From Planctomycetota bacterium (GTDB lineage Bacteria > Planctomycetota > MHYJ01 > JACQXL01), in contig JACRIK010000021.1 of NCBI GenBank assembly GCA_016235865.1, positions 97,226 to 161,225 of the forward strand: a stretch of 64,000 nucleotides of DNA, in the 5' to 3' direction. Numbering within the stretch: position 1 is the first letter of the stretch; each line of letters opens with the position of its first letter. Of the stretch, positions 1 through 63,019 are shown in pieces. The notes beneath the pieces were generated by a model, which was not told where the DNA came from, made no database searches, and saw only the letters and a list, made by a program, of their open reading frames with translations. The position numbers were made by a program, and so were the translations under genes.

Positions 1-170
1 AAGAGGGATATGAGGGGATTGGAAACAATGGGGATGATAAAAAGCTTTTCTTTATTTGACTCCATCAGGCAGAAGTGGTATTGATTCATTATTAACCGGT
101 GGCGGACGATTGTCTTTGGCAAGGATGCCATTGACGGTGATTTCGTTAAACTTTAACCTGCATAGAGCTA

Positions 171-4537: not shown

Positions 4538-5125
4538 ATGTGGCAGATAGAAAAAACCACCAAACGCTGTCAGGAATGTAACTCAACTATAGAGGTCAGC
4601 CAGCATTATTTTTCGGCGCTGTTCCCTAATCCAACGGATAAAACAGGGGAGCCGCGCCTATTGCGCCGGGATTTTTGCGCTAATTGTTGGGAGCGGCGGA
4701 CCGCGGCCGGTGAAGAGCCACCCTTTTCCTTCTGGCAGACTGTCATAGAACCACCGGCTGAGCCGCCCAAGACCCCGCGCGAGGTTCTGCTTAATTTCTT
4801 TGATAACCTATTTAAGGAAGCAACTGAAGTGCCCGCGGCAGAGAATACGTCTGTGCCGGTGGTTCAGGACACCAGATTAAAATCCCAGGTAAAATACCTC
4901 TTTGCTTTGATTATGATGCGCAAGAAATTATTGCGGCTGAAGAGCCCGCTGACCCGGGACAATACCCGGTATCTGGTCCTGGAGCGGTTTGCGAAGCCGC
5001 AGCGGAGTCCCGATAACTTCGGGGGTGATGCTAAGGTTTATGAGGTGGCCGAAGTAAACATTTCGGATGAGGAGTTAGATTCCCTAAGGCAGGAATTTTC
5101 ACAACTCTTTGAATTCAGGATATAA
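4538..5125 (+). CDS. hypothetical protein with N-terminal CxxC...CxxC zinc-ribbon
   Basis: 195 aa ORF; CQEC...CANC; no recognisable family. Confidence 0.5.
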   Translation: MWQIEKTTKRCQECNSTIEVSQHYFSALFPNPTDKTGEPRLLRRDFCANCWERRTAAGEEPPFSFWQTVIEPPAEPPKTPREVLLNFFDNLFKEATEVPAAENTSVPVVQDTRLKSQVKYLFALIMMRKKLLRLKSPLTRDNTRYLVLERFAKPQRSPDNFGGDAKVYEVAEVNISDEELDSLRQEFSQLFEFRI

Positions 5126-6315: not shown

Positions 6316-9294
6316 TTATAGATATTTCTTCAATATTTTTCCAGTATAAGAGCGTTCTTGCCTGGCAATCTCTTCAGGGGTGCCGGAAGCGACTACTCGG
6401 CCGCCTTCATCACCGCCTTCGGGTCCCAGATCAATGATATAGTCAGCCATTTTGATGACGTGCATATTATGTTCGATGACCACAACGCTGTTACCGCGGT
6501 CCACCAGTCGATTGAGGACATTGAGCAGTTTATTGATATCGGAGAAATGCAGGCCGGTAGTCGGCTCGTCAAGTATGTAAAGGGTTTTATTGGTGGCGGT
6601 CTTGCCTAATTCAGCTGATAGCTTGACCCGCTGGGCTTCGCCGCCTGAGAGCGTGATGCTGGATTGGCCCAGGGCGATATAGCCCAGTCCGACGTTATCG
6701 AGTGTCTTGAGGATGCGCACGATATGCGGGAAGTTCTGGAAGAATTCCACGGCGGCTGAGACCTCCATTTCCAGGACATCGGCGATATTCTTACCCCGGT
6801 AGGTGATGTCCAGGGTCTCGCGGTTATATCTTTTGCCTTTGCACTGTTCACAGGTGATGTAGACATCAGGCAGGAAGTGCATCTCGATTAGTTTAGTGCC
6901 TTGGCCCTGGCAGTCGGCGCATCGGCCGGCCTTGAGATTAAAACTAAATCGGCCGGACTGGTAACCCCGTAATCGGGCTTCCTTAGTCATGGTAAAGACC
7001 TTGCGTATCTCGTCAAAGACGCCGGTATAAGTGGCCGGATTTGAACGAGGCGTCCGGCCAATCGGCGACTGGTCAATGATAATTACTTTGTCAACATGTT
7101 CGGCACCGATAATGTCGTCGCATTCACCTGAACGAATCCGGCTCCGGTAAATTTTCTTCATCAGCCCTTTATAGAGGATTTCATTGACCAGCGTGCTTTT
7201 GCCTGAGCCGGATACGCCGGTTACACAGGTAAAGCAACCTAATGGGATGGGTACATTGATGTCTTTCAGGTTGAATTCCCGGGCCCTGATGATGTTTAGC
7301 CAGTTATGTTCGCTCGCGCGGTCTCTGCGGAGTTCGCTGGCGCGGTCACTGCGGCCTTCTGATTTGTCATTTTTTATTTTATTATTAGCAGTATTTGGCT
7401 GCGGGAATAGATTGCGGTCAAAACGCCTTTTCTTTGGCACTTCTATTCTTAATTTATTGGTCAGGTATTGCAGGGTCAGGGAATGGTTATTATTATTTTC
7501 TCCTGAAGTTCCGTTAGGCGGTTTTACAGTATTATTATTGTTTGTCATTTTACCGTTTAGGACATCCTTACTCGGAGCCGAGATGATTACCTGTCCACCC
7601 CGGGTGCCGGCGCCCGGACCGACATCAATCAGATAATCCGATGCCCTGATGGTGTCTTCGTCGTGCTCAACTACAATGACTGTATTGCCTAAGTTTCTTA
7701 ATTTTATCAGGGTATTGAGCAGGCGTTGGTTATCGCGTTGGTGCAGTCCGATGGTTGGTTCGTCAAGGACATAGCAGACCCCGACCAGACCTGAACCGAC
7801 CTGGGAAGCCAGCCGTATCCGTTGGGCCTCGCCGCCTGAAAGCGTCAAACTGCGCCGGTCTAATGTCAGGTAGGACAGTCCCACGTCTATCAGAAATGAA
7901 AGGCGGTTCTTGATTTCCTTTAACGCCATCTGTCCGATAAGCGTCTGTTCAGCGGTTAGGACGAGTTTATCAAAGAAGTGATAGGCGTCCTTAACCGCCA
8001 TCTGAATCACCTCGGAGATATTTTTTCCGCCGATGCGGACGGCCAGTGGCTCTGGTTTTAAGCGCGCGCCTTTGCAGGTTGGGCAGGGCAGTTCGCTCAT
8101 ATATGAGTGTATCCGGTGCTTGACTCCTTCGCTCTGGGTTTTGTAGAACCGGTTCTCCAAGTCCGGTATCACGCCGGTAAAACTGCGTTTATATTTGGCT
8201 TCATCTGGTTGATTGGTGCCGTACATCAGGATCCGTTTCTTATCTTCAGGCAGGTTGTAGAAAGGCGCATCCATAGCTATGTTGAAATCGCCGGCGAACT
8301 CCTTGATAACATACGAATAATAAATAGCCATCCGGTGTCCGGATTTACGCCAAGCCTCGATGGCTCCGTTAGCCAGCGAGAGCGACTTGTCAGGCACAAT
8401 CAGGTCCATATCCAGTTCCATCCGTGTGCCCAGGCCGTTGCAGCGTGGGCAGGCGCCATAAGGTGAATTAAACGAGAATATCCGCGGGCTTAATTCCGAT
8501 AAACTTATCTGGCATTCCGGACAGGCAAAATGCTCCGAGAATACCAGGTCGGAAAACCGTTTGCCCTGGGGCTGATGCGAGATGATGACCAATCCTTCGC
8601 CTAATCTCAATGCGGTTTCGACCGAATCAGCCAGCCGGCTCTTTTCTATGCCGGCAGGCTCAACGCTCAGTCTGTCGATGACTATCTCGATATTATGACG
8701 TTTGTATTTATCCAGTTTAGGGACGGATGAGCCGAGTTCTATAACCTTGTTGTCAACCCGGACTCGGACAAAGCCATTGCGCCGGATGCGTTCAAAGACA
8801 TCCCGATGTTCGCCTTTTTTGCCTCGGATAATCGGAGCCAGGACAATAATCCGGGAATAAGCCGGGAATGATTGGATATGCTGGATAATCTGCTGGGCGG
8901 ACTGTTTGACAATTGGTTTATTGCACTTGGGGCAGAAGGGTTGGCCCAACCGGGCGAAGATAACGCGCAGATAATCATATATCTCGGTAGTGGTAGCCAC
9001 GATCGAGCGAGGTGTGCCGGTTCCGCCCCGTTGTTCTATAGAAATCGTGGGAGGCAGGCCTTCGATAGATTCCACATCCGGTTTGGCAATTTGTTCCAGG
9101 AACTGCCGGGCGTAGGCCGAGAGCGATTCGATATAACGGCGTTGTCCCTCGGCGTAAATGGTATCAAAAGCCAGGGAGGTCTTGCCTGAGCCGGAGACAC
9201 CGGTTACCACAATTAGTTTATCACGCGGGATATCAATGTTGATATTCCTGAGATTATGCTCCTTGGCTCCGCGTATGGATATATGATTGGTCAT
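6316..9294 (-). CDS. uvrA: excinuclease ABC subunit A (UvrA) with internal low-complexity/repeat insertion
   Basis: 992 aa; two ABC ATPase modules, Zn fingers; N-term '[42 protein letters not shown]'. Confidence 0.9.
7311..7356. repeat. dispersed repeat family B (modules X+Y) inserted in-frame in uvrA
   Basis: cgcgcggtctctgcggagttcgctggcgcggtcactgcggcc; translated '[13 protein letters not shown]' on minus strand. Confidence 0.85.
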
Positions 9295-15267: not shown

Positions 15268-16119
15268 ATGTTGCCGTCCTGGTTAAAACAGAATAAACCA
15301 TCGCTGGGCAAATCCATGGCAATTAATAATATCATCAAGAGTCATGGTCTTCATACGGTCTGCCAGAGCGCCAAATGCCCCAATATCTTCGAATGCTTTG
15401 CCAAAGGCACGGCTACCTTTATGATTCTGGGCGATGCCTGCACCAGGCACTGCCGGTTCTGCTCGGTCAAGAAACAAGCGCCTCTGCCGTTGGCTTCCAA
15501 TGAAGCGAAGGAAGTGGCGGATGCCTGTTGCAAGATGAAACTAAAACATGTCGTGATTACTTCGGTTACCCGCGATGATTTGCCGGACGGCGGGGCAGGC
15601 GTATTCTATGATACGATTATGGAAGTGCGTAAGACGTCTCCTGGAGTGGCTATTGAGGTCCTGACTCCGGATTTCCAGGGTAATCAAACAAGCATCCGCC
15701 AGGTTGTCTCAGCCCAACCCGATATATTTAATCACAATATCGAAACCGTGCCCCGGCTTTACTCCGAGATTAGACCCGAAGCGGATTATCAGCGCTCATT
15801 AAAACTGCTGGCCTATGTTAAGGAGTTAAACCCGGCCATGCGGACCAAGTCAGGCCTGATGTTGGGATTAGGAGAAAGAGAAGACGAGGTGCTGTCGGTG
15901 CTCAAAGACCTGAGGGTCGTGGATTGCGATATGGTTACCATCGGTCAATACCTGCGCCCGTCATTAAGCGCCGGAACCGTGGAGGTGGCCAGATTCGTCC
16001 CGCCCGAGGAATTCGAGGCATACCGCGCCAAGGCATCAGAGATGGGTTTTAAGGCCGTGGCCTCGGGTCCTTTTGTTCGCTCGTCATACATGGCTGCGGA
16101 GTTGTACGGAGTTCGCTAG
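15268..16119 (+). CDS. lipA: lipoyl synthase
   Basis: 283 aa; radical-SAM CxxxCxxC (CTRHCRFC) plus N-terminal auxiliary cluster cysteines. Confidence 0.9.
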   Translation: MLPSWLKQNKPSLGKSMAINNIIKSHGLHTVCQSAKCPNIFECFAKGTATFMILGDACTRHCRFCSVKKQAPLPLASNEAKEVADACCKMKLKHVVITSVTRDDLPDGGAGVFYDTIMEVRKTSPGVAIEVLTPDFQGNQTSIRQVVSAQPDIFNHNIETVPRLYSEIRPEADYQRSLKLLAYVKELNPAMRTKSGLMLGLGEREDEVLSVLKDLRVVDCDMVTIGQYLRPSLSAGTVEVARFVPPEEFEAYRAKASEMGFKAVASGPFVRSSYMAAELYGVR

Positions 16120-16138
16120 CGCGGTCACTGCGGTGTTC
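16096..16138. repeat. repeat family B module Y overlapping lipA stop codon
   Basis: gcggagttgtacggagttcgctagcgcggtcactgcggtgttcc. Confidence 0.85.
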
Positions 16139-16275
16139 CGATAATTTCGGGGAAGAATTAGGATTAACCCCTCGACTTCGCTCGGGATAAGACATTGTAA
16201 CGTTCTCCCGCCCCAAAGGGACGGCATAACTAACAATCTCTAAAGTTTAGCCGCTAAACAACCGAGAGTCATATA

Positions 16276-16452
16276 ATGGGTTTTTTCTTTTATCTTATCG
16301 GATTTCTTGCCATTGGAGTGTTTTTTGTTATGCTTTGGAAAACCAGGTCCCGGAAAGAGGCCATGAGGCAAGAAGACGAGTGGATGCAGAGTTTGCCTCC
16401 TGAAGAGTGGGGTAGTAGTGAACATGAAGAAGAAGACGAAGAAAAAGATAGC
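16276..16452 (+). CDS. possible small membrane protein (58 aa, below ORF-track cutoff)
   Basis: ATG at 16276, hydrophobic 'GFFFYLIGFLAIGVFFVMLW' followed by acidic tail; overlaps annotated topA start in another frame. Confidence 0.25.
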
Positions 16453-18988
16453 TAAGGCTTCTGGTGCAGGCGCTAAGGCCAAACCGGCCACCAAGATTAA
16501 GTTCAAGTCGCCAGTTGATGCCTCTGGCGCCCCTGAAGCAAAATCAGAACCGGTAGCTAAGGTCAAAAAAGCCAAGGTGGTGTTGCCGGCAACGAAAGGT
16601 AAGTCACTGGTGATTGTCGAATCGCCGGCCAAAATCAAAACCATCAGCAAGATTCTGGGCAGCGATTATGTCATCACCTCGTCTTACGGCCATATCCGTG
16701 ACCTGCCCAAGAGCAAGCTCGGCATAGATATCGAGGACAATTTCAAGCCCGGCTATATCATCATGCGCAAGCAGATAAAGAATGTCAACGCGCTGAAAAA
16801 GATGGCGGCCGCGTCCAATGGCGTGTATCTGGCCACTGATCCGGACCGGGAAGGCGAGGCCATTGCCTGGCACCTGTCCGAGATTCTGGGCATGCCGCCA
16901 GATAAGTTCTGGCGGGTGAGTTTTGACGAGATTACCGCGCCGGCCGTTAAGGAGGCGTTCAGCCATCCCCGTAAGATTTCCATAACCCTGGTCAATGCCC
17001 AGCAGACCCGGCGTTTCCTGGACCGGATTATGGGCTATAAATTATCACCGCTCCTCTGGGACAAGATAACCCGGGGCCTGTCAGCCGGCCGGGTCCAGTC
17101 CGTGGCGCTTCGGCTGGTGGTGGAACGGGAAAGGGCCATCCGGTCATTCAAGCCCCAGGAGCACTGGAAAATAACGGCTGACCTGTCCCACGCGATGCCG
17201 CATGGCTGTCGCGCCCATCAGGGCAAGGACATATTTAACGCGACACTTTACAAACTTAACGACTCCAATGTCGGCAGTCCGATGGACGGCAGCGCCAATA
17301 TCTGGATTGGCTCGGAAACCGAATCCAAGAAACTGGTCGAGCGCCTCGGGAAAAGCGATTTCAAGGTGCTGGGTATAACCGAACGCGAAAGCAACCAGTA
17401 TCCGGCGCCGCCGTTTATCACCAGCACGCTCCAGCAGACCGCGTCCATCAAGCTCAATTTCAGCCCGCGCAAGACCATGATGATTGCCCAGCAATTATAT
17501 GAAGGCGTGGAACTGCCGGAAGGCCCGGCCGGCCTGATTACCTATATGCGCACCGACTCGGTCCGGGTCAGCGAGGTGGCTATCAAGGAATGCCGGAGTT
17601 TTATCGCTAAGCACTTCGGAGAGGGGTTGCTTAATCCGGAAGCCCGGCATTACAAGCCCAGCAAACAGTCCCAGCAGGCGCACGAGGCCATCCGGCCGAC
17701 CTATCCGGCCAAGATGCCGGATGATATCGCCCAATACCTGACCAGAGACCAGTATAAACTCTACACCCTTATCTGGAAACGGTTCACGGCCACCCAGATG
17801 AAACCGGCGGCCTGGAAGAGCAAATCAGTGGAGATTGAATCGCAGTTGGCGCCAGCACTGGAACTGGAGGTCTTCTCCAATGACAAGCGGCACAAGCTCA
17901 TCGCCGAAAAGATACTCGCCTCAGTTGGGTCCGGCCAGAACGGGGCAGTGCTGGAAAAAATCATAACCATATTAAGCCGGAACAAGCAGGACGATGAGAC
18001 GGCCCGGAAAATCATTGAAGCCCTGGGGCAGAATGTGGAAGACAAGGCATTAACCGCCCGGATAATCGGCATCATGGATGAAACCGTGGACGGTGCTCTG
18101 ATACTTGAGAAGATGAACGTAGCCAGATGCCTTTGGAGCGCCAATGAACGCCGGCTGGTGGCTCCGGGATTTATGACCCTCTATAATCCCGAGGAGCAGT
18201 TATTGCCCGGCTTAAAAGAATCCGGCAAGCTGGACGTAGCGCAAATCATCCCGGCCCAGTCGTTTACCGAACCGCCGCCTTATTACAACGAGGCATCGCT
18301 GGTCAAGGTCCTGGAAAAATACGGCATCGGCCGCCCGTCCACCTACGCGCCGATTATTGCCACCATCCAGGACCGGGGCTATGTCATCAAGCGGGCCCGG
18401 CAGTTGACGCCGACTGATTTAGGCCTGCTGGTCAACGACAAACTCGTGCCGTTCTTTGAGGATATCATCAATACCCAGTTCACGGCCCGGATAGAAGAGG
18501 AACTGGATTTGATTGAGGAAGGCCAGAAGGAATTGGTCCCGACATTAAAGGAATTCTACGCGCCGTTTGCCAAGGACTTGGAAAAGGCCCAGGCCGAGAT
18601 GACCAGCGAAAAGGGCAAGGAGAGCGGCGGGAAATGCCCACTGTGCAATAGTCCGATTGTCGAACGCTGGTCCCGGTTCGGCAAATTCCTATCCTGTTCG
18701 GCATTCCCGGAATGCCGGCATACCGCATCGCTCAAGCCAAAGGCTGAGCCGGAAAAGACCGACCAGGTCTGCGAAAAATGCGGCAAGCCCATGGTCATCC
18801 GGTTCAACCGCCGGCGCAGAACCCGGTTCATCGCCTGCTCCGGATATCCGGACTGCAAAAACGCCAAGCCGTTCAAGAAACCCGGTGAAGAGGCAGAAGC
18901 GGCCCCGGAGCCGGCCCGGAAACAAAGCCCGTCGGTTGAAGAGACCGAAGCCAACGGCACTTCAGCAGAAGAGACAGCCGCTAACTAA
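16418..18988 (+). CDS. topA: DNA topoisomerase I
   Basis: 856 aa; TOPRIM 'VIVESPAKIKTI', C-terminal Zn ribbons; Lys-rich N-terminal extension (true start uncertain). Confidence 0.9.
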   Translation: MNMKKKTKKKIAKASGAGAKAKPATKIKFKSPVDASGAPEAKSEPVAKVKKAKVVLPATKGKSLVIVESPAKIKTISKILGSDYVITSSYGHIRDLPKSKLGIDIEDNFKPGYIIMRKQIKNVNALKKMAAASNGVYLATDPDREGEAIAWHLSEILGMPPDKFWRVSFDEITAPAVKEAFSHPRKISITLVNAQQTRRFLDRIMGYKLSPLLWDKITRGLSAGRVQSVALRLVVERERAIRSFKPQEHWKITADLSHAMPHGCRAHQGKDIFNATLYKLNDSNVGSPMDGSANIWIGSETESKKLVERLGKSDFKVLGITERESNQYPAPPFITSTLQQTASIKLNFSPRKTMMIAQQLYEGVELPEGPAGLITYMRTDSVRVSEVAIKECRSFIAKHFGEGLLNPEARHYKPSKQSQQAHEAIRPTYPAKMPDDIAQYLTRDQYKLYTLIWKRFTATQMKPAAWKSKSVEIESQLAPALELEVFSNDKRHKLIAEKILASVGSGQNGAVLEKIITILSRNKQDDETARKIIEALGQNVEDKALTARIIGIMDETVDGALILEKMNVARCLWSANERRLVAPGFMTLYNPEEQLLPGLKESGKLDVAQIIPAQSFTEPPPYYNEASLVKVLEKYGIGRPSTYAPIIATIQDRGYVIKRARQLTPTDLGLLVNDKLVPFFEDIINTQFTARIEEELDLIEEGQKELVPTLKEFYAPFAKDLEKAQAEMTSEKGKESGGKCPLCNSPIVERWSRFGKFLSCSAFPECRHTASLKPKAEPEKTDQVCEKCGKPMVIRFNRRRRTRFIACSGYPDCKNAKPFKKPGEEAEAAPEPARKQSPSVEETEANGTSAEETAAN

Positions 18989-20163: not shown

Positions 20164-22026
20164 ATGAATTTTCTGCGTAAAATATTTAAGAAGAAAGCGC
20201 AGGTTGATCCTGCCAATGATCCTAACATGGTAAAGGCCTATGATGGATATGGTCGGGAAATATTTATCTCCAAACAGCAATGGAAGGACAAGGTACTCCT
20301 GAAGAATCTAGAGGAGAAACGCAACAATCCTAATCAGCTTTATGATTGGCTTTTCTTGGCACTGAAAGATGGATTTGTGCAAGATATTGTTCCTTATGCC
20401 GAGCATTTATGGCGCACTGACCCTATTCCATCCAGGGGAGCCGCAGTACTCGGTATTGTCTATATGAAGAATAACCGCTTGGATGAGGCGGAACGAGTAT
20501 TAAATGATTTCCTGTCAGCACATGGCGATAATGGGGTTGTTCTGACTAACTTGGCAAAGGTATACGATAAACGGGGGGATAAAGCAAAAGCCGAATCAAT
20601 TCTTTGGCATGCCTTGGAGGTTGACCCTAATCAGGAAAATGGGCTTGCTTGGTATATTGCAATTCAGAGTGAGCGGGGAGGCGAAGCGTCGGTACTCGAT
20701 GCCTATCATCATATCGCCGCTTGGCCCAAAAGCTGGAGGGTCCAGCTTTGGTTGGCGCGTGAGGCGCTTGCACGCAAAGATTTGCCAGCTGCGGAGGCAT
20801 TTTACGCGGAAGTATTTGCCAGGGCTGAGCGTCCGGTTCCCGATTATGTCCTTACACAAATAAGTGGAGACTTAGGTAAGAACGGATATCTGGCAGAGAT
20901 GTTTCGTCTGGTCGAGCCTCATTTTGACCCGGCTATTCACGGCTTTAATGTTGGAAATAATCTTATAATGGCCAATCGTGAACTTGGTCGCACAGATATT
21001 GCCCGGCGTATTCTAAATCAGCTTTATGCCCAGAAACGTCCTGATTGGCAGCATGCGTTAAAGTACTGGGACACTGAACTTGCCAAAGACGAAGTAGCGC
21101 GCAAGGCGCAACAAAACCCCGGACAATCTATTGTTTTCATTTCAACAGAAGGTCCGTTATGGGCAAGTAAGGAATCCCCATTTGCAGTTCTCATGCCGGC
21201 TAAATCTGGTAACACACCGCAGATTGCCGTTTTGGGAAGCATGGCCTTGTTTTCGGAGTTATCCAAAAAGCCTGTGCCTCAACTCAGCGATGCTCCGGGC
21301 CGTATCAGCCGGATTGTTGCTCTTTTTCTGGCTGAAAAAATCCACCTTCAAACCGATGCGGTTGGTATAGCTTTAACTCCTTGGGCGCAAAAACTAGGGT
21401 TTGCTGTTTTTGGTAATCCCTACGGCGACAAGGATCTCTGTGAAGTTGCATGTAAGAGTGTGAAAGTTCCGCATTTTATCGTTGCTGTCAATTTTGATGC
21501 TACCCAGTTAAAATGGAAAATGATACTACGCTTATTGAGGGTGAGTGATTGTGTGCGTGTTGCAGAAGAACAGATTGAAGCCGATCCGCTGAATCCCGGA
21601 CCAGCTATTGAGCTTTTAGCTCAAACGCTTCAACAGTTGCTTGCTAAATACGCCGGGGTGCATATTACGGCACATCCGCAATGGTACCAGAATCTATCCG
21701 GACCGGATTTATCTGACTATCTTCTGCGGCTTGAGCAACAACTTGCAGTAATATGTAAAAATCTCGATTTCCTCGAAGGAGGAGGTTTGTTCGGGGAACA
21801 TGAAATCATTGATGGTGTTTTGCAACTCTGTCTAAGTCAGCCGGCAAGCCAATTGGTTAGAATGGTTCTGGCCCAAACGCTCCGGCAGATGAGCAAATTG
21901 CACCCGGAACTTATTTCCGAATATAAAGATAAGATTAATTTACTCCAACGGACTCATCTTCTGACAGGAGAAGTTGGCGAATTGATTAATAAAGCCATTA
22001 ATCAGACAATGACACGGACGGCTTAG
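20164..22026 (+). CDS. hypothetical protein, TPR-like N-terminal region; atypical codon usage
   Basis: 620 aa ORF; codon usage (cgt/gca/ctt, lower GC3) differs from neighbours. Confidence 0.55.
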   Translation: MNFLRKIFKKKAQVDPANDPNMVKAYDGYGREIFISKQQWKDKVLLKNLEEKRNNPNQLYDWLFLALKDGFVQDIVPYAEHLWRTDPIPSRGAAVLGIVYMKNNRLDEAERVLNDFLSAHGDNGVVLTNLAKVYDKRGDKAKAESILWHALEVDPNQENGLAWYIAIQSERGGEASVLDAYHHIAAWPKSWRVQLWLAREALARKDLPAAEAFYAEVFARAERPVPDYVLTQISGDLGKNGYLAEMFRLVEPHFDPAIHGFNVGNNLIMANRELGRTDIARRILNQLYAQKRPDWQHALKYWDTELAKDEVARKAQQNPGQSIVFISTEGPLWASKESPFAVLMPAKSGNTPQIAVLGSMALFSELSKKPVPQLSDAPGRISRIVALFLAEKIHLQTDAVGIALTPWAQKLGFAVFGNPYGDKDLCEVACKSVKVPHFIVAVNFDATQLKWKMILRLLRVSDCVRVAEEQIEADPLNPGPAIELLAQTLQQLLAKYAGVHITAHPQWYQNLSGPDLSDYLLRLEQQLAVICKNLDFLEGGGLFGEHEIIDGVLQLCLSQPASQLVRMVLAQTLRQMSKLHPELISEYKDKINLLQRTHLLTGEVGELINKAINQTMTRTA

Positions 22027-22661: not shown

Positions 22662-23636
22662 CTATGTCCCGCCAGAAGATAGGGCCAATGCGGCTGCGCC
22701 TAAGAGGCCGGCATCCTCGCCTAATTTGGCCGGGACAATCAGGGGCTTGCGATAGGGGTGTTTCATTATACTTGCCTTGACTACCTGACGCAGGGGTTTG
22801 AACAGAATCTCACCGGCCTGAGCCACTCCGCCGCCGATTACCACCATCTCCGGGTCAAAGATGTTAATCAGCGATGCGCAGGCCAGACCGAGATAATGGG
22901 CGGTGTCTTGAACAACTTCGCGGGCGAGTTTGTCGCCTTTTCTGGCTTTGTCAAATATTGTTTTAGCAGTAATGTCGTGCGTCTTGCGTCCTACGTCTTG
23001 CGTCCGGACGCCCAACGCATAACGCCCAACGCATAACGCATAGCGTTCTACAATGGCCGGTGCGCTGACCAGCGCTTCCAGATGCCCGGGTTTCCCGCAA
23101 CTGCAGTCCGGGCCATTGGGGTCTACGTTCATATGCCCGATTTCAGCGGCATAGAAATGCGAGCCGCGATATATCTGGTTGTCAATGATAATCCCGCCGC
23201 CTACGCCGGTGCCTAAGGTCAGGCAGATGAGATTCGTTGCTTTCTTCCCAGCGCCCCAGCATTTCTCACCCCAGCCGGCCAAATTGGCATCGTTGTCTAT
23301 GAAGACGGGTATTTTGAGCGCCTTCTCAAGCTCCTGTTTTACCTTCGTGCCTTTCCAGCCAATCAGATTGGGGGAGTCAGCCAGGATAATGCCTCTTTCA
23401 GCGTCAATAGAGCCGGGACAGGCGAGGCCGACACCGCGAACGGAATGACGAATGACGAATGACGAATGACGAATAACTTGATTGACTAATTGGGCAATGA
23501 GCCGGATGCCTTGTTTGCCATTGGGTGCTTTCGAGAAAGAGACCTTTTTCCTGGCCTTGATATGGCCGTTTTGGTCCACCAGCGCCGCGGTGATGTGGCT
23601 GCCGCCTAAATCGATACCAATAGCAAATTTGGTCAT
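22662..23636 (-). CDS. ROK family sugar kinase (glucokinase-like)
   Basis: 324 aa; 'KFAIGIDLGGSHITAALVD', CxCGxxGHLE zinc motif; contains in-frame repeat insertions. Confidence 0.8.
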   Translation of the reverse strand: MTKFAIGIDLGGSHITAALVDQNGHIKARKKVSFSKAPNGKQGIRLIAQLVNQVIRHSSFVIRHSVRGVGLACPGSIDAERGIILADSPNLIGWKGTKVKQELEKALKIPVFIDNDANLAGWGEKCWGAGKKATNLICLTLGTGVGGGIIIDNQIYRGSHFYAAEIGHMNVDPNGPDCSCGKPGHLEALVSAPAIVERYALCVGRYALGVRTQDVGRKTHDITAKTIFDKARKGDKLAREVVQDTAHYLGLACASLINIFDPEMVVIGGGVAQAGEILFKPLRQVVKASIMKHPYRKPLIVPAKLGEDAGLLGAAALALSSGGT

Positions 23637-23715: not shown

Positions 23716-24717
23716 TTAAGTGCCAACCGTCTCAAGGTCAGGTTTTTTGTCGCCCTGATTACACTTCTTGAGCAGTTTTTCCCATTCCTTATCCACATTG
23801 GCCTGGAGTTTGTTGATAAGCTCCTGGTTCGGTCCGCTCCGGTGGGTGCTCCCGGTCTCTGCGGAGTTCCCGCCCTTGGCGAAGATGTGCTTGAACCGGC
23901 CCTGGGGCTTGAGCCATTCGGTGATGGGTTTCTTTTCCTTGGGGATATAATTGAGTTTGTATTCCCCGTTTTCCACTTCATAAAGCGGCCAGTAGCAGGT
24001 ATCAGCCGCAATCCGGGCCAGGTTGATGGAGTCCTTCATCTCGTTTCGCCAGCCCCGGTGGCAGGGCGAGAGGATATTCAGGAAGCTCGGGCCGTCAGCG
24101 GCCAGTGCCTTTTTGACCTTGGTCATCAGGTCGCGCCAATGGGCCGGCGTGGTCTGGGCCAGGTAGGGGATATTATGGGCTGCCACGATGCCGGTCAGGT
24201 CCTTGCGGAAGACCGGTTTGCCGTAACTGGCCGAGCCGGCCGGGGTAGTGGTGGTGGAAGCGCCCATTGGGGTGGCGCCGGAGCGCTGGATGCCGGTATT
24301 CATATAGGCCTCGTTGTTGTAGCAGACATAGAGGAACTTGTGGCCGCGTTCCAATGCGCCGGAAAGCGCCTGCAAGCCGATATCAAAGGTCCCGCCGTCG
24401 CCGCCCACGGCGATGAATTTAATGGTCTTGGTAACCTTGCCCTGGCGTTTGAGCGACTGGTAAGCGGCCTCGATGCCGGAGATGGTCGCGGCCGAATTCT
24501 CGAAGGCGCTGTGAATCCAGTTGCATTTCCAGGCCGTATACGGATAGGTGGCGGTGGCCACATAGAGACAGCCGGTAGCCACGGACATAACCACCGGGTC
24601 TTCGGCGGCCATCAATATCTGGCGGAAGGTGGTTCCGGCGCCGCAACCGGCGCAAAGCCGGTGTCCGGAGACGAATGTTTCTTCCTTCTTGGATAATTCT
24701 TTTAAACTTAGTGCCAT
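23716..24717 (-). CDS. porB: pyruvate:ferredoxin oxidoreductase beta subunit (TPP-binding)
   Basis: 333 aa; 2-oxoacid:ferredoxin oxidoreductase beta family. Confidence 0.85.
   Translation of the reverse strand: MALSLKELSKKEETFVSGHRLCAGCGAGTTFRQILMAAEDPVVMSVATGCLYVATATYPYTAWKCNWIHSAFENSAATISGIEAAYQSLKRQGKVTKTIKFIAVGGDGGTFDIGLQALSGALERGHKFLYVCYNNEAYMNTGIQRSGATPMGASTTTTPAGSASYGKPVFRKDLTGIVAAHNIPYLAQTTPAHWRDLMTKVKKALAADGPSFLNILSPCHRGWRNEMKDSINLARIAADTCYWPLYEVENGEYKLNYIPKEKKPITEWLKPQGRFKHIFAKGGNSAETGSTHRSGPNQELINKLQANVDKEWEKLLKKCNQGDKKPDLETVGT
23828..23874. repeat. repeat family B module X inside porB 3' coding region
   Basis: ttcggtccgctccggtgggtgctcccggtctctgcggagttcccgcc. Confidence 0.85.
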
Positions 24718-24838: not shown

Positions 24839-26074
24839 TTATTCTCTTACCGTTAAATAGTCAAACACCTTATCAACCTTGCCGGCCTTGGCCACATCAA
24901 ACAATTTCTGGAATACCTTGTTGATGTCTTCCAGCCGGATATCGCGTCCGCCGATTCCATAGATGTAATTAATCATCAGGGGCTGTTTGGGCAGTCCGTA
25001 CATGGCAGACCTGACCTCGGTAAAGGTCGGGGTGCCGCCGGCGCCGAAGGCATCGACCCGGTCCATAACCGCGATGGCCTTGAGATGTTTCAGCGCGTTC
25101 TTGATTTCCTCTGCCGGGAACGGCCTGAAGATGCGGGGCTTGAGCAGCCCGACCTTGACGCCCTTGGCCCGGAGTTCATTGACCACCATCTTGGCCACGC
25201 CGGCCGCGGAATTGATGATGACCAGCGCGTATTCGGCGTCATCCAATTTGTAGGATTCGAACAGCCCGTATTTCCGGCCGGACATCTTGGCGAATTCCTC
25301 GGCCACCTCAAGTATCTTGGCCTTGCTGTTTATAATCGCCTCGGAATGCTGGCGTTTGTGTTCGGTATAATAATCCTGCAGGGCGCAGGCGCCGATAGTC
25401 ACCGGGTTATCCACATCCAGCAGTGAATTTATGGCTTTGAACTCGCCCACGAATTTCCTGACCGCCTCGTCATCGAGCAGGTCAACCCGTTCCACGGAAT
25501 GGGTGGTGATGAATCCGTCCATCGAGACCATGACCGGCAGGCGGATGTCCATATCTTCGCCGATGCGGACGGCCTGGATGAGGTTGTCATACATCTCCTG
25601 GGCGTTTTCGGAGTATATTTGGATCCAGCCGGAATCGCGTCCGCCCATGGTATCATCGTGCCCGCAGTGGATATTTAGCGGCGCGCTTAAGGAGCGGTTG
25701 GCTACATACATTATCACCGGTGTGCGCAGTCCGGCGGCGATGGGCAGCATCTCCCACATCAGGGCGAATCCGGCTGATGAGGTGGCGGTCATGGTCCGGG
25801 CGCCGGCGGCTGAAGAGCCGATACAGGCGCTCATGGAACTATGCTCGCTTTCCACCGGCACGTATTGGGTCTTGACCAGTCCGTTGGCCACGAACTCGGC
25901 GAATTCCTCCACGGCCTCGGTCTGGGGCGTAATCGGATAGGCGGCCACCACGTCCGGATTAATCTGGCGCATGGCCTCGGATACCGCGTTGTTTCCGGTC
26001 ATTGCAGCTATTCGGTTCGCTCCGGTAGGTGCTCCCGGTCTCTGCGGAGTTCTGGCGTTTTTGTTGTCTGTCAT
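24839..26074 (-). CDS. porA: pyruvate:ferredoxin oxidoreductase alpha subunit
   Basis: 411 aa; POR alpha family; repeat-derived N-terminal extension. Confidence 0.85.
   Translation of the reverse strand: MTDNKNARTPQRPGAPTGANRIAAMTGNNAVSEAMRQINPDVVAAYPITPQTEAVEEFAEFVANGLVKTQYVPVESEHSSMSACIGSSAAGARTMTATSSAGFALMWEMLPIAAGLRTPVIMYVANRSLSAPLNIHCGHDDTMGGRDSGWIQIYSENAQEMYDNLIQAVRIGEDMDIRLPVMVSMDGFITTHSVERVDLLDDEAVRKFVGEFKAINSLLDVDNPVTIGACALQDYYTEHKRQHSEAIINSKAKILEVAEEFAKMSGRKYGLFESYKLDDAEYALVIINSAAGVAKMVVNELRAKGVKVGLLKPRIFRPFPAEEIKNALKHLKAIAVMDRVDAFGAGGTPTFTEVRSAMYGLPKQPLMINYIYGIGGRDIRLEDINKVFQKLFDVAKAGKVDKVFDYLTVRE
26011..26057. repeat. repeat family B module X inside porA 5' coding region
   Basis: ttcggttcgctccggtaggtgctcccggtctctgcggagttctggcg (about 2 mismatches vs 23828-23874). 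Confidence 0.85.
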
Positions 26075-40921: not shown

Positions 40922-41563
40922 CTATTTACCTTTTCTCCATTTTTCTATCTGCTGGTGATTACCCGAAACCAGCACCTCCGGGACAGTATGGCCCCGGAAA
41001 TCGCGCGGCCTGGTGTATTGGGGGTAATCCAGTTCATTTCCCTTGCTAAACGACTCCTGTTCAGCCGACGAAGCGTTACCCAAGACGCCGGGTATCAGCC
41101 GGATGACGCTGTCCATCACGACCATTGAAGGCAATTCGCCGCCGCTTAGCACATATCGGCCGATGGATATAATATCATCAAATTTAATAATGTCAAAGAT
41201 TCTCTGGTCAAATCCTTCATAATGTCCGCAGAGAATAATCAGCCCCTTTTTCTTACTCAAGGCCCGGGCCTTGGGCTGTCCAAAGGTCTTTCCGGCCGGG
41301 GTCAGGACAATCTTATGGGCATCTGAGCGCCCGTTGGCCTTAAGATACTCAAAAGCCCGGACAATCGGCTCGGCCAGCAGGAGCATTCCCGGCCCGCCCC
41401 CGAACGGACGGTCATCCACCTTATGGTGTTTGTCCGTTGAAAAGTCCCGCAGGTCATGGAGATTGATTTTAACCAGCCGCTTTGCCTGGGCCCGCTTGAT
41501 GATGCTCTCCTTTAAGAACCCCTTGAACATCCCGGGGAACAGGGTAATTACGTCAATGACCAT
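40922..41563 (-). CDS. trmD: tRNA (guanine37-N1)-methyltransferase
   Basis: 213 aa; SPOUT knot family 'MVIDVITLFPGMF'. Confidence 0.85.
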   Translation of the reverse strand: MVIDVITLFPGMFKGFLKESIIKRAQAKRLVKINLHDLRDFSTDKHHKVDDRPFGGGPGMLLLAEPIVRAFEYLKANGRSDAHKIVLTPAGKTFGQPKARALSKKKGLIILCGHYEGFDQRIFDIIKFDDIISIGRYVLSGGELPSMVVMDSVIRLIPGVLGNASSAEQESFSKGNELDYPQYTRPRDFRGHTVPEVLVSGNHQQIEKWRKGK

Positions 41564-41619: not shown

Positions 41620-41697
41620 TTCGCGGATGACACAGATTAAAAATAATCAGTGAAATCTGTGAACACCGCAGTGACCGCGACAGCGAAATCTGTGGTT
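41620..41697. repeat. AACCACAGAT...ATCTGTGGTT terminal-inverted-repeat element
   Basis: 10-bp perfect TIRs, internal cacagatt/aatctgtg sub-repeats. Confidence 0.8.
41663..41693. repeat. repeat family B module Y (reverse orientation), intergenic, nested in AACCACAGAT element
   Basis: RC = ttcgctgtcgcggtcactgcggtgttcac. Confidence 0.8.
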
Positions 41698-42623: not shown

Positions 42624-43853
42624 ATGCCAATAAAGTTTATTAAGGTGGTTGCATCAGTATTGATTATAATCTGTGCTTTTATTCTTAACTATGGTTGCCT
42701 TGACAGTGGCGGGCATACACCGCATACTTCTCCTTCCGAACCGCCTCCCAAGATACCCATAATAGACGGCTGGGCTAAGATTTCAGCCGGATACGGGCAT
42801 ACCCTGGCCCTGCAAACCGACGGTACGCTCTGGGCTTGGGGAGATAATTCTTATAATCAATTAGGTTTGGGGGAATATTACTATTATTATGGGGATTATT
42901 ATGCGGGCAGTTCCGGTTATTATAACTATTATTCTAAAAATATTCCGACCATAGTTGGGAGCGATACGGATTGGGTTTCTGTGGCGGCCGGCGAGAAACA
43001 TAGTGCGGCCCTGAAAACCGACGGCACGCTCTGGGTTTGGGGCAACAACTCCGATGGCCAATTGGGCGACGCGACTCATACGTATAAAAGCACTCCGACC
43101 AAGATTAGCGACACTGATTGGGCAACTATCGCGGTTGGTTACAATCACACCATTGCGCTTAAAACCGGCGGCACGCTCTGGGCCTGGGGCAAGAATGATT
43201 TCGGGCAGGTAGGCGACGGCACAACCTTCAGCAAGAGCATTCCCACCCAGATTGGAATAGATACGAATTGGTCGGCGATTACCGCCGGGCAGGGGCATAC
43301 CATAGCATTGAAAAGCAATGGCGAACTCTGGGCCTGGGGCAAGAATGATTTCGGGCAATTAGGCGATGGAACAACGACATCTATAAACCAGCCAATTAAG
43401 ATAACCGGCACCAACTGGTCCGCGGCGGCTTGCGGCGCCAATCACACGGTAGCGCTGAAAAGCGACAATTCGCTCTGGGTTTGGGGCGACAACACCAGCG
43501 GCCAATTAGGCGACGGCACAATCATATCCCGGACCCAGCCCACCCAGATAACTGGCACCAACTGGGCCGGGATTGCCTGCGGCGCAAATCATACCCTGGC
43601 TACCAAGGCCGATGGCACTTTCTGGGCCTGGGGCTATAACTACTATGGTCAATTAGGCAATGGCATACCGGACAATACAAGCAATCCGATTCAAATTACC
43701 GGCACAACCTGGTCAATTATTGCGGCCGGCAGTGACCGTTCATCTGCCATTAAATCAGATGGCACGCTCTGGTCCTGGGGCAAAAATTATAGTGGCGCTT
43801 TAGGATTAGGCAATTATGCCGATAAATTTATCCCAACCCAGGTCGGGGAATAA
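42624..43853 (+). CDS. RCC1-repeat (beta-propeller) lipoprotein with Tyr-rich insertion
   Basis: 409 aa; seven 'DGTLWAWGxNxxGQLGDG' RCC1 repeats; N-terminal signal/Cys; 'YYYYGDYYAGSSGYYNYY' segment. Confidence 0.8.
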   Translation: MPIKFIKVVASVLIIICAFILNYGCLDSGGHTPHTSPSEPPPKIPIIDGWAKISAGYGHTLALQTDGTLWAWGDNSYNQLGLGEYYYYYGDYYAGSSGYYNYYSKNIPTIVGSDTDWVSVAAGEKHSAALKTDGTLWVWGNNSDGQLGDATHTYKSTPTKISDTDWATIAVGYNHTIALKTGGTLWAWGKNDFGQVGDGTTFSKSIPTQIGIDTNWSAITAGQGHTIALKSNGELWAWGKNDFGQLGDGTTTSINQPIKITGTNWSAAACGANHTVALKSDNSLWVWGDNTSGQLGDGTIISRTQPTQITGTNWAGIACGANHTLATKADGTFWAWGYNYYGQLGNGIPDNTSNPIQITGTTWSIIAAGSDRSSAIKSDGTLWSWGKNYSGALGLGNYADKFIPTQVGE

Positions 43854-43879: not shown

Positions 43880-44575
43880 ATGTCCGACTTCACTAAGAAA
43901 TCCTGGAAGTGCGTTGATATCAAGGATATTGATTGGGGCCAGAGGTTTGAGTTTAACGAGGATAAGGTGGATACCTATGTGTCGGACCTGCCCGGGGTCT
44001 ATCGCCTGGTTTATCGGACAATCCATGAGGGCAAGGATGGGTATTTTGTATTTTATAACGGCGAGACGGATGATTTATACAAGACACTGTGCGGGCATCT
44101 TAATCTCCTGAAGATTGAACTGCCACCGCCCAAGAATCCCTATAATGCCCCGGAGCATTGCATACAAAAGACCCTGCAGGAATACCCGTGCTATTTCAGG
44201 TTTATAATAGTCCGTTCAAAAAAGGAGCGGGTCCGGATTAAGAAGGAGCTTGATGATTCCATTATCCCCAAGGGCGAGATGGAATTCGCGGCCTGGGCCG
44301 ATAATTTCTTCCGGGTGTTGTCGGCCAACGCGGACAAGTGGTTTCCTCCGGCGGAGCGTCCTGCTGATTTTAGCGATGCTCTTGATAAATTTAATGACAA
44401 GCACAAGAAGTTTATGGCGTCCTATGATGAGCATCTCAAGGTGCAGATTAATCTTAGGGCCGCTGAGAAGAAACTGAAAGACGCCGAGCAGAAACTCAAG
44501 GATGAACAGCAGAAACGCAAGGAAGCTGAGAATGAAGGCGAGGAGTGGAAAGAGGGGAAGAATAAGCCGGACTGA
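43880..44575 (+). CDS. hypothetical protein with C-terminal coiled coil
   Basis: 231 aa ORF; weak GIY-YIG-like 'PGVYRL...GYFVFYNGETDDLYKTL'. Confidence 0.45.
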   Translation: MSDFTKKSWKCVDIKDIDWGQRFEFNEDKVDTYVSDLPGVYRLVYRTIHEGKDGYFVFYNGETDDLYKTLCGHLNLLKIELPPPKNPYNAPEHCIQKTLQEYPCYFRFIIVRSKKERVRIKKELDDSIIPKGEMEFAAWADNFFRVLSANADKWFPPAERPADFSDALDKFNDKHKKFMASYDEHLKVQINLRAAEKKLKDAEQKLKDEQQKRKEAENEGEEWKEGKNKPD

Positions 44576-44745
44576 TGATTAAAGCAACCCCCTGGACGGC
44601 TCAGGGGGACTGACCGATGACTGAAGCAACCCCCTGGATGACTCAGGGGGACTGACGGATGACTGAAGCAACCCCCTGGATGGCTCAGGGGGGCTGCGGA
44701 ATGACTGAATAAACCCCCTGGACGGTCCAGGGGAGCCATTTGCGG
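44574..44745. repeat. 4 tandem copies of ~42-bp unit each containing a CCCCCTGG..CCAGGGGG hairpin
   Basis: tgactgaagcaaccccctggatgactcagggggactgacgga x4 with point variation. Confidence 0.85.
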
Positions 44746-44788
44746 AGCGACAGCGGAGTCCCGACCAAATCGGGGAAGGAGTTTTGAT

Positions 44789-45490
44789 ATGCCACAACAC
44801 GATTTTATCCCTAAATCAGACCCGGGTATGGCTGCTTTCCTGCGGAATTTGGCCAATAAGATAGGCGGATATGCGGCTACCTTTAATCTGACCCCGGCTG
44901 AAGTGGCTTCGGCCAAGAACGATGCGGCCAGGTTTACCTATATCCTCAAGGTTCAGGAGGCGTATAAGACATTTAAGCAGGCGATTTCAGGGTATAAGGA
45001 TATGCTCCGGGATGGTCCTGGCGACGCTCCTGTAGGCGATCTGGTTTTTCCGACCATGCCGGCGGCTCCGGCCCTGGTTAACTCCGGTATTTTTCCCCGC
45101 ATTCGCAAACTAGTGGGCCGCATCAAGGCCACGCCTGGTTATACCGAGGCCATCGGCGAGGACCTCGGGCTGGTGGCAGATGAAGAGGCGATTGATATCC
45201 TAAACCTGAAACCGGTGTTGAAGAGCCGTCTGGATGGCGGGCGTCCGGTGATTATCTGGACCAAGGGGGCGGCTGGTTTCCTGGTCATCTACGTTGACCG
45301 GAAGGACGGCAAGGGATTTGTCTATCTGACCACCGATATGTATCCGGATTATATGGATAAATTCCCGGTGCCGGACGGCAAGGATGCGGTGGTCTGGGAT
45401 TATAAGGCCATTTACAAAATCGGTGATGAACAGGTCGGGCAATTCTCGGAGCCGATTTCGGTCACCGTGACCAGGCAACCCGGGGGGTAG
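44789..45490 (+). CDS. hypothetical protein
   Basis: 233 aa ORF with host-like codon usage; no recognisable motifs. Confidence 0.45.
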   Translation: MPQHDFIPKSDPGMAAFLRNLANKIGGYAATFNLTPAEVASAKNDAARFTYILKVQEAYKTFKQAISGYKDMLRDGPGDAPVGDLVFPTMPAAPALVNSGIFPRIRKLVGRIKATPGYTEAIGEDLGLVADEEAIDILNLKPVLKSRLDGGRPVIIWTKGAAGFLVIYVDRKDGKGFVYLTTDMYPDYMDKFPVPDGKDAVVWDYKAIYKIGDEQVGQFSEPISVTVTRQPGG

Positions 45491-54460: not shown

Positions 54461-55873
54461 TCATTTCCATTCGATAACAGGTGGAATATCCTGAACGCTA
54501 AGCCAGGTTTTATTCGCAAGCGTTAGGGTGGTTCGTGTGTTATCAGGAAGAGTATAGGTAATTGTTTTTTTGCCATTTATGACTTCTTGTACCTGCGCAT
54601 CCGGGTATAATTTATTCAGAACCTTTTGATACGCATTAAACGATTCGTAGGCATCGTTATCTGAATCCCATATGGTCGAGAGGAATAAAACAATATCCTT
54701 GGTTTTATTGTTTTGGAGCAGGAAATATTTATCGCCATCCCAGCCCTCCGATGCCTCGCCGGCTTTTCCTTTGGCATAACTGCTGAATAGAATCCAAAAG
54801 CCGAATTCCCCCATGGTGTTTTCGGCCAGTATGGTCCATTCATCGCCAGCCTGGGGCGGTGTAATCGATTCAGGGGTATCGCGCGGTTCGGCCAATTTTT
54901 TGGTATGAATCATCTGTTCGGTTGATATAGGCGGATTCTTATATGTCCCGCTAACCAGCTGCCAGTTTTTTTGCTTCTCATCAATGGTCACCATGGTATG
55001 AATGGAGTAGGCGCCGTGGTAATAAGGCGCTATCAGCAGCCAGAAAAGATAATCCGGCACATCCTTGAGGGCTATTATGGATTCATATAAGTCAGGCGCT
55101 GTTTCTTTATACTGTTCAGCCATTGATGTTGATAACTCCAGTAAATCTTTGCGCCCCAGATTTTTGTAGCGGCTGAAAGCCATTTCCATCATCGGGCTGT
55201 CCGGCGCAAAGGTGATGCCCATTTTCTCTAACTGGGCAATGGTCATGACATAAGTGGCTTCTCCTTCTACCAGATATCTGATAGCGGTTTCCTGGTCGCT
55301 ATTATTCGCTGTTTTGATCAGTTTTCCCAGGTCATAATACTGGTCCTGGAGGGCGTGAGTCAGTTCGTGGATAACCATGGTTTCCATTTCCATCTGCGGC
55401 ATATTGATTTTTATGAAATACATACACTTGGTTTCGGGGTCATAATAAGCTCCGGCCTGGCTGACCAGCAGGTTTTCCAGTCCTTTTTTCATGTCATAAT
55501 TCTTGGGTAACAATCCCAGTTTAGATAATGCCAGCTGGTTCCATCTGCTTTCCTCATCAAATGATTTATCCAGGTCTTTTTTCACGAAAGTCCTAAATTC
55601 CTCAACGGATTGTACCGCTCCTTTGACATCAGACTTAAACTTCTTGCCGCTGATTCTTTCCACGATTTCCTGGCAGGATTTCAGGTTGACCGGGATTCCC
55701 GGCGTAGCAGCGGCGGAGTCCGCCGGCGCGGTCACTGCGGTTGTTCCCCGAAGGCTTTCGGGGGGCGCAGCGGCTGATTTGTCATCCGGTTTATTACTGC
55801 CGCCAGCGCAGCTAATAGAGGCGATAGAAATTAGTGTCAATGCTAATACTAAGGCAATATGTTTTTTATGCAT
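54461..55873 (-). CDS. putative lipoprotein zinc metallopeptidase (HExxH)
   Basis: 470 aa; lipoprotein signal 'LISIASISCAG'; 'MVIHELTHALQDQ' HExxH motif. Confidence 0.5.
   Translation of the reverse strand: MHKKHIALVLALTLISIASISCAGGSNKPDDKSAAAPPESLRGTTAVTAPADSAAATPGIPVNLKSCQEIVERISGKKFKSDVKGAVQSVEEFRTFVKKDLDKSFDEESRWNQLALSKLGLLPKNYDMKKGLENLLVSQAGAYYDPETKCMYFIKINMPQMEMETMVIHELTHALQDQYYDLGKLIKTANNSDQETAIRYLVEGEATYVMTIAQLEKMGITFAPDSPMMEMAFSRYKNLGRKDLLELSTSMAEQYKETAPDLYESIIALKDVPDYLFWLLIAPYYHGAYSIHTMVTIDEKQKNWQLVSGTYKNPPISTEQMIHTKKLAEPRDTPESITPPQAGDEWTILAENTMGEFGFWILFSSYAKGKAGEASEGWDGDKYFLLQNNKTKDIVLFLSTIWDSDNDAYESFNAYQKVLNKLYPDAQVQEVINGKKTITYTLPDNTRTTLTLANKTWLSVQDIPPVIEWK
55709..55765. repeat. 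repeat family B module Y inside lipoprotein peptidase gene, plus poly-C/G hairpin
   Basis: gcggcggagtccgccggcgcggtcactgcggttgttccccgaaggctttcgggggg. Confidence 0.85.
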
Positions 55874-58768: not shown

Positions 58769-58850
58769 GCGCGGGTGGTGGAACTGGCAGACACGTAGGT
58801 TTTAGGAGCCTATGCCTCACGGCTTGCGGGTTCAACTCCCGCCCCGCGCA
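58769..58850 (+). tRNA. tRNA-Leu (anticodon TAG)
   Basis: acceptor gcgcggg/cccgcgc, anticodon stem taggt/gccta with loop ttTAGga, long variable arm, T-loop ttcaact; no encoded CCA. Confidence 0.7.
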
Positions 58851-62920: not shown

Positions 62921-63019
62921 CGTCATTTCCGTGTAAACGGGAATCCAGTATTAGGTTTTTGGATTCTTCCTGAGTTTAATACGTAAATGCCTGGACTCCT
63001 GCCTTCGCAGGCGTGACAA
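62921..63019. repeat. compound palindromic element between GAF-HD-GYP gene and valS
   Basis: gtcatttccgtgtaaacgggaatccag...ctggactcctgccttcgcaggcgtgaca. Confidence 0.75.

Follow-up and report, generated by a model that had tools for sequence, protein, structure and literature searches.

Several classes of short repeat are known to enter bacterial coding sequence. The Rickettsia palindromic elements (RPEs; Ogata et al. 2000, 2002, summarised in PMC10969869 and PMC3733652) are sequence families of approximately 100-150 bp with long palindromes. Repetitive extragenic palindromes (REPs) of the GTAG/CGTC type have been found inside open reading frames (ORFs), including a REP-interrupted uvrA in Opitutus terrae and Thioalkalivibrio (Di Nocera et al. 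2013, PMC3733652). Among bacterial MITEs (transposable elements of the miniature inverted-repeat type), ERIC, QMITE1 and BOX have intragenic in-frame copies (reviewed in PMC10969869); MITEs are 70 to more than 300 bp long and have terminal inverted repeats as well as defined target-site duplications. Here we describe a copy of a 24-nt repeat in a stretch of 64,000 nucleotides from a Planctomycetota bacterium (contig JACRIK010000021.1; the whole stretch is called the window below). The copy lies, together with a GC-rich hairpin, in the gene for an HExxH protein of the DUF8575 family, which is plausibly a lipoprotein. It behaves like the RPEs and the intragenic REPs but, on the features examined, lacks characters by which membership of either group is recognised.

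An insertion in the tether of a DUF8575 protein

An earlier note, made from the sequence alone, placed a repeat and a C/G hairpin at positions 55709-55765, within the N-terminal linker of the HExxH gene on the minus strand, and proposed that this linker is encoded by inserted repeat DNA. The gene, with its HExxH motif (HELTH), and the linker KSAAAPPESLRGTTAVTAPADSAAATPGIP are present as described, and the 35-mer quoted there is an exact and unique match at 55713-55747 on the plus strand. The interval itself needed adjustment: its start should be approximately 4 nt later, and the insertion reaches further, to approximately 55777 (Table 1).

The homolog comparison is a 20-sequence alignment of the window protein with 19 homologs. 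A linker block of approximately 21-22 residues (AAPPESLRGTTAVTAPADSAA) occurs in the window protein only and is lacking in 19 of the 19 aligned homologs; a conserved identical linker, which the earlier note had named as the observation that would count against insertion, is not seen among them. The nearest N-termini, those of P0005 and P0007, read ..SITCAGGGNKPDNKTAAP-EIPVNIKSCQEIVERISG at the linker, and the genes of these two homologs lie in the same order as in the window, murG-rmlB-DUF8575-pilT (loci L001 and L003). At the DNA level, alignment with two syntenic orthologs gives a single clean in-frame gap of 66 nt. The gap spans exactly the repeat and the hairpin, and the codons are colinear on either side. 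The segment is an insertion relative to all the homologs. It is also compositionally foreign, with a local GC content of 0.66 compared with 0.38-0.49 in adjacent 100-nt windows.

The ends of the insertion are ambiguous by approximately 13-16 nt because GGCG..CAGCGGC is present on both flanks. This may be a target duplication, or it may be the GCAGCGGAGT tail of the element itself, a sequence also seen ahead of related hairpins at 4981, at 44732 and in L131.

Within the insertion, the sequence ccccgaaggctttcgggggg occupies 55746-55765. The hairpin is extended by an outer stem, CTGCG/CGCAG (55735-55739 and 55766-55770), and a second small hairpin, CGGCGG-AGT-CCGCCG, appears in the predicted fold. 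Whether treated as DNA or as RNA, the 76-81-nt segment gives a better fold than shuffles do (z = -2.4 to -2.9). A promoter/terminator scan made no terminator-like call at this hairpin, and an Rfam gathering scan of the whole window returned only a tRNA (58769-58850), with no match at any repeat.

Table 1. Coordinates of the host gene, the insertion and the repeat copies (positions in the window)
Feature	Coordinates	Strand	Description
Host gene	54461..55873	-	470 aa; signal peptide, Cys22, predicted disordered tether, then DUF8575 (PF26686) domain
Insertion	55712..55777	-	66 nt, 22 codons, in frame; approximately residues 33-54 (..AAPPESLRGTTAVTAPADSAA..); orthologs without it
Repeat unit	55714..55745	+	Family core TYCGCYNNCGCGGTCWCTGCGG at 55719-55740; antisense to the gene, read TAVTAPAD
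GC hairpin	55746..55763	.	Stem CCCCGAA 55746-55752, loop GGCT, stem TTCGGGG 55757-55763 (7 bp)
Two tandem 24-nt units	7309..7354	+	Inside uvrA (6316..9294 -), read as 16 residues
Unit and hairpin composite	16107..16152	+	Overlaps lipA (15268..16119 +) and supplies its stop codon
Intergenic unit	41661..41693	-	Between trmD-like ORF 40922..41563(-) and ORF 41867(+); within inverted repeats AACCACAGATTTCGC, GCGAAATCTGTGGTT

The host protein begins MHKKHIALVLALTLISIASISC, continues as AGGSNKPDDKSAAAPPESLRGTTAVTAPADSAAATPGIPVNLKS, and carries the linker after the signal peptide and Cys22. Its exact record is NCBI HZA49_06620 ('Planctomycetes bacterium', a metagenome-assembled genome (MAG)), and the identical sequence is also found in an independent Logan assembly. 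PF26686 is assigned in precomputed form to this exact protein, as well as to 118 of the 120 homologs listed; a local Pfam search gave only a sub-threshold match to DUF6782. The HExxH and EGEA motifs (H169, E170, H173, E203 and E205) are invariant in the 20 aligned sequences. The best Foldseek match in the PDB is a weak one, to 3CMN (putative hydrolase). The signal peptide and Cys22, judged by eye, make it plausible that the protein is a lipoprotein, and the invariant motifs together with the weak 3CMN fold match make it plausible that it is a peptidase. Neither label has any bearing on the conclusion concerning the insertion.

In an AlphaFold2 model based on the homolog alignment, the predicted local distance difference test (pLDDT) score is 27-29 for residues 21-50, below 50 for residues 14-57 and above 90 from approximately residue 60. 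The insertion therefore falls in a predicted disordered tether. This tether, which joins the metalloprotease-like domain to the lipid-anchor cysteine, is predicted to have been lengthened from approximately 14 to approximately 36 residues. The proposal that the linker is encoded by inserted repeat DNA thus holds for approximately 22 of its approximately 36 residues and no more.

A dispersed family of 24-nt units

The insertion belongs to a multi-copy DNA family that is also carried by related genomes. The family unit is 24 nt long (GTTCGCTNNCGCGGTCWCTGCGGW) and is at times joined to a hairpin of the form CCCGA-loop-TCGGGG. Units are single or tandem (up to three), and every unit is bounded by GTTC on both sides. 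Two paired variants occur, GTCTCTGCGGAG and GTCACTGCGGTG, both of which keep a 3-bp mini-stem. In the window, a repeat search groups the lipoprotein site with 7304, 7328 and 16107 and, in inverted orientation, with 41661-41693. When the window was scanned with the 31-nt consensus GGAGTTCGCTGGCGCGGTCACTGCGGTGTTC, allowing up to 9 mismatches, there were five matches (1-6 mismatches each) and none in any of 20 shuffles. The repeat is not a chance resemblance.

Tandem Repeats Finder reports a period of 24 and 2.0 copies at the uvrA units. The copy at lipA has the hairpin CCGATAATTTCGGGG (16139-16152), so that a unit followed by a hairpin is common to this site and the lipoprotein gene; a hairpin of the lipoprotein type also follows the unit in L038/L128, L067 and L131. 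The same DNA unit is translated as RSDRASEL in uvrA and as AVTAPADS in the lipoprotein, and other copies lie outside genes. With different frames and non-coding copies, the repeat exists at the level of DNA, not of peptide.

Two further observations concern the surroundings of these copies. The intergenic unit lies within a larger composite (41600-41730) with ATCTGTG-rich flanks, bounded by AACCACAGATTTCGC and GCGAAATCTGTGGTT; this composite recurs in L018, L050, L056 and L088, in three related MAGs. The type of hairpin present in the lipoprotein insertion is also seen in a repeat of the form GCAGCGGAGTCCCGA-loop-TCGGGG at 4981-5024 and 44732-44775. One of these copies is in ORF 4538..5125(+), where it is read ERFAKPQRSPDNFGG, and the other is intergenic. 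Directly upstream of the latter (GCAGCGGAGTCCCGAnnnnnTCGGGG module) there are approximately four tandem copies of a 42-nt unit, each with the hairpin CCCCCTGGAnGnCTCAGGGGG (44570-44733, between ORF 43880..44575 and ORF 44789..45490).

To survey other genomes, the core TYCGCYNNCGCGGTCWCTGCGG was used as a query against one genome per GTDB species. Among the matches listed, the sequence is multi-copy only in related Planctomycetota MAGs, namely MAG219 (JBFMDM01; GCA_040753835.1), H41-bin223_1 (JBBTIZ01) and MEGAHIT-group-0.182 (two loci); all other taxa among them show single matches without the family flanks. We rejected the 22-mer matches outside Planctomycetota, which lack these flanks, as chance or unrelated: many represent a conserved Firmicutes coding motif (..GTTCCGCCGCCGCGGTCACTGCGGAT..) or come from GC-rich genomes. 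Two metagenome matches (L129 and L130), which fit the search pattern but not the family flanks, were not counted. MAG219 holds the ortholog L003 with an empty site, yet it carries the family, and L002 and L128 are from the same Hainich H41 assembly as H41-bin223_1, with similar coverage. Relatives without the insertion in the DUF8575 gene therefore still carry the family.

Across four genomes the family counts at least 58 units, spread over more than 45 loci. The census covers the window and 46 loci, with 58 units examined; a unit was considered to be inside an ORF if it lay at least 30 residues within an ORF of at least 200 aa. By this definition 31 of the 58 units are inside long ORFs, and all but two of these (29 of 31) are in one orientation, antisense to the unit as written. 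The 29 antisense units are read mostly as xR(R/S)DRxSE (22 units) and otherwise as SAETAxAN/TAVTAxAx (seven units). In common variants a stop (TGA or TAG) blocks one of the three antisense frames, and the sense frames give Cys-containing or hydrophobic peptides. The family clearly has a strong orientation and frame bias in genes.

Recognisable host ORFs include those for Mfd, PheT, a Ser/Thr kinase with TPR repeats, Lon (three tandem units), Ffh and PurL. In the kinase the consensus AIELKPDY is interrupted as AIEL-RRDRESEL-KPDY, an insertion of exactly 24 nt with GAACTC on both sides. The composite of hairpin, unit and tail occurs, in the same orientation and frame as in the lipoprotein, in PurL of H41-bin223 (PRNNRNTAVTAIANSVATP), in a 302-aa ORF (L067) and in a metagenome ORF (L131). 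In this PurL it is a unique insertion of 19 aa (57 nt) in a conserved stretch and is absent from 15 homologs. Reconstructed empty sites hold an element-end motif: GAACTC for the TPR kinase, CCGCAG for PurL and GGCGCGGCGG for the lipoprotein ortholog.

UvrA homologs sharing 90-93% identity with the window protein have 2, 1 or 0 units at the unit site: two in the window, one each in P0122 and P0123, and none recognisable in P0124-P0126. P0122 has further repeat modules. The family has thus entered coding sequence in frame repeatedly, and has been gained or lost between close relatives.

The uvrA locus varies in other ways. At UvrA residues approximately 583-660 (gene 6316-9294), two hypervariable insertion hot spots flank the 16-residue unit-derived segment, and their inserts, which are low-complexity or repeat-derived, are different in each close relative. 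UvrA is 991-1074 aa long in this clade compared with approximately 940 aa in other Planctomycetota. In MAG219 (L127, 6033-6434), a 133-aa gene with bAvd / 23S rRNA-intervening-sequence protein domains (PF22296, PF05635) lies between uvrA and a pilT-like gene; it is absent at the matching position in the window and in L124-L126.

Origin of the insertion

Like the RPEs, the family is multi-copy and lineage-restricted, is found in frame in unrelated, functional housekeeping genes, where it adds a peptide at tolerated sites, and also has copies between genes. Unlike the RPEs, it is based on a 24-nt, essentially non-palindromic unit that may be tandem; its composite is only 57-66 nt long, with no more than the 7-bp hairpin and a 5-bp outer stem, and its host is a free-living groundwater Planctomycetota lineage. 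Homology to RPE-1..10 is unlikely because of this host. With the intragenic REPs it shares a size class of 20-40 nt and the occurrence in ORFs of singles, dimers or groups encoding approximately 8-30 residues (and the interrupted uvrA of that study parallels the uvrA units here). However, neither GTAG nor CGTC is found at the ends of the GTTCGCTNNCGCGGTCWCTGCGGW unit or of the hairpin module, the constant end motif being GTTC, and although the unit size fits, a single unit has no significant stem-loop. The unit was also considered as a REP-type palindrome, and this was dropped since single units fold no better than shuffled sequence. MITEs resemble the family in being non-autonomous dispersed repeats able to form translational fusions, but their size, terminal inverted repeats and fixed target-site duplication are not evident here. 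Finally, as in variable number tandem repeats (VNTRs), which change by slipped-strand mispairing, the period of 24 nt is a multiple of three, the units are head-to-tail and copy number varies (2, 1 or 0 in uvrA; three in lon); VNTRs, however, expand locally, whereas this unit is found at dozens of unrelated loci, and the lipoprotein copy itself is a single unit. Since each of these classes is matched only in part, we file the family among the short dispersed repeats that become coding sequence. Full-text literature searching found no description of the 24-nt unit family.

In our judgement the 22 extra tether residues very probably arose by in-frame insertion of a composite from this lineage-specific family of short dispersed repeats. 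The inserted composite would consist of the GC hairpin, the 24-nt unit and a short tail, approximately 57-66 nt in all. We infer that the element is selfish or neutral DNA which copies itself to new sites, and that its insertions are kept only where they do no harm, being divisible by three in length and placed in loops or disordered tethers. Surviving copies would have been filtered for the orientation and frame that give a hydrophilic Ala/Thr/Pro-rich or Arg/Asp/Ser-rich peptide. At the lipoprotein, the only predicted effect would be a longer flexible tether. Two speculative models of mobilisation may be proposed: site-specific single-strand transposition resembling that of IS200/IS605 or of the REP-associated tyrosine transposases (RAYTs), or microhomology-guided copying of a template, followed by slippage to give tandem units. 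Both fit the constant GTTC at the unit ends and the element-end motifs in the empty sites.

A number of observations weigh against insertion of a mobile composite. No transposase or other mobilising function was identified. For RAYT in particular, a tblastn search of 447 kb of lineage DNA with an approximate E. coli RAYT query gave no match below E = 0.8, although this is a weak test. Neither the unit nor the composite has terminal inverted repeats, and a single unit folds no better than shuffled sequence (minimum free energy -3.4 to -4.2 kcal/mol; z = -0.6 to -1.6). No target-site duplication could be established at the lipoprotein insertion and no unambiguous one was seen in the family copies examined, where the flanking direct repeats are GTTC for the units, 3-4 nt for the PurL composite and the ambiguous 13-16 nt at the lipoprotein. 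The lipoprotein copy also departs from the family consensus (TCCGCC in place of TTCGCT), and its 22-mer alone is found once each, by chance, in some GC-rich genomes; its membership of the family therefore rests on the 22-mer together with the flanks, the hairpin and the coincident gap. In addition, the databases hold no strain-level variants of the host gene. The closest homolog is only 72% identical, so that no population was seen to have both filled and empty alleles.

The strongest competing proposal contests the mechanism and not the fact of DNA insertion. The family could have spread without a dedicated transposase if microhomologies (GTTC/GAGTTC, CTGCGG, GCAGCGG) allowed replication to switch template, or gene conversion to occur, between loci, with slipped-strand mispairing altering the tandem number. 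The arrays of one to three units, the unlike copy numbers of close relatives, the GTTC at every unit boundary, the GAACTC, CCGCAG and GGCGCGGCGG motifs already present in reconstructed empty sites, and the lack of a RAYT-like gene in the weak search above are all in keeping with such a process. Microhomologies of 4-6 nt are very common, however, yet the family is limited to a few related genomes and has a sharply conserved 24-nt sequence, which is more typical of an actively copied element, and we regard template switching as a possible but rather unlikely source. A bolder form of the mobile-element explanation is, in our view, about equally tentative. Here the 24-nt unit would be an active, as yet undescribed, ultra-short, codon-phased (8-codon) mobile module without palindrome, terminal inverted repeats or REP tag, inserting next to GTTC by a mechanism outside the RAYT/REP, RPE and MITE models and causing continual length polymorphism in the essential UvrA, Lon, Mfd, Ffh and PurL proteins of a Planctomycetota lineage. 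If this were true, the orientation and frame bias would reflect either transcription-coupled or replication-coupled insertion or a stringent peptide filter.

The remaining alternatives carry less weight. That the motif is kept for a nucleic-acid function (for example, as a protein-binding site, an uptake-like signal or an RNA structure), with its presence in the linker selected, appears improbable: strong conservation of the unit in at least four genomes, the mini-stem retained by the GTCTCTGCGGAG and GTCACTGCGGTG variants and the better-than-shuffled fold of the composite would agree with it, but the copies show no positional logic (they are in unrelated genes, at gene ends and between genes), and have no Rfam match or terminator-like context, and the orthologs work without the insertion; moreover, uptake-type signals come by substitution rather than by insertion. 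Still less credible is a selected peptide module, that is, a repeat at the protein level with no inserted DNA. Two translations do dominate the coding copies (xRRDRxSE and SAETAxAN/TAVTAxAN), and 4 of 4 coding composite copies are in the frame PRNNRNTAVTA..; this reading is nevertheless largely refuted by the presence of the same DNA in at least three frames and outside ORFs, and the nucleotide identity is far above what peptide selection would need, in host proteins that are functionally unrelated. The least probable explanation is an artefact of metagenome assembly, or a native low-complexity linker resembling the repeat by chance. In its favour, the sequence comes from a MAG, assemblers can be misled by repeats, and the codons on the flanks are rich in Ala (GCN). 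Against this, the colinearity and reading frame of the gene are kept on either side, assembler k-mers are longer than the repeat, the independent Logan assembly encodes an identical protein, analogous in-frame insertions exist in four other independent assemblies, and the shuffles gave no chance match.

Other repeats in the window and significance

The window contains several additional repeats. Between ORF 20164..22026(+) and ORF 22662..23636(-) a 22-nt unit, TATCCCCTAAGCGGGGAGGGGC, occurs 17 times in tandem with 85% match (22090-22467); its period is not divisible by three. A second GC-rich 42-nt repeat, ending in GGTCTCTGCGGAGTTC, has two copies that are 95% identical (23828-23869 and 26011-26052). 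One is inside the PorB-like ORF 23716..24717(-), where it is read GNSAETGSTHRSGPN and where the PDB sequence alignment of the protein stops; the other, at the 5' end of the PorA-like ORF 24839..26074(-), is read RTPQRPGAPTGANR in another frame and could precede the true start. REP-like palindromes, TGTCATTCCCGYGAAARCGGGAATCCAG paired with TCTGGATTCCTGCnTnCGCAGGAATGACA, occupy inter-ORF gaps around the pyruvate:ferredoxin oxidoreductase genes and elsewhere (24758-24827, 26134-26218, 39198-39227 and 62921-63018). A 79-nt direct repeat (18878-18956 and 19949-20027; 94% identical) encodes a KPGEEAEAAPEPARKQSPS.. tail, with one copy at the C-terminus of the TopA-like ORF 16418..18988(+) and the other approximately 1 kb downstream. 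At 42798-43816 there are seven repeat copies with a spacing of mostly 147 nt (49 codons), sharing a motif ..GTLWAWGxN..GQLG.. that looks RCC1-like.

The lipoprotein insertion provides a clean, datable case of repeat DNA becoming protein sequence. As a single case it is modest; of moderate interest is the wider pattern, in which 24-nt units have settled in frame in essential genes of an uncultured Planctomycetota lineage. In practice, such units inflate protein length, create apparent low-complexity and can mislead protein annotation and alignment in MAGs. With frequent and recent events, including some in essential genes, this lineage is a natural, non-Rickettsia system for the mobilisation of short repeats into coding DNA. 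It could also show which peptide contexts tolerate such repeats and what share repeats have in the evolution of linkers and loops.

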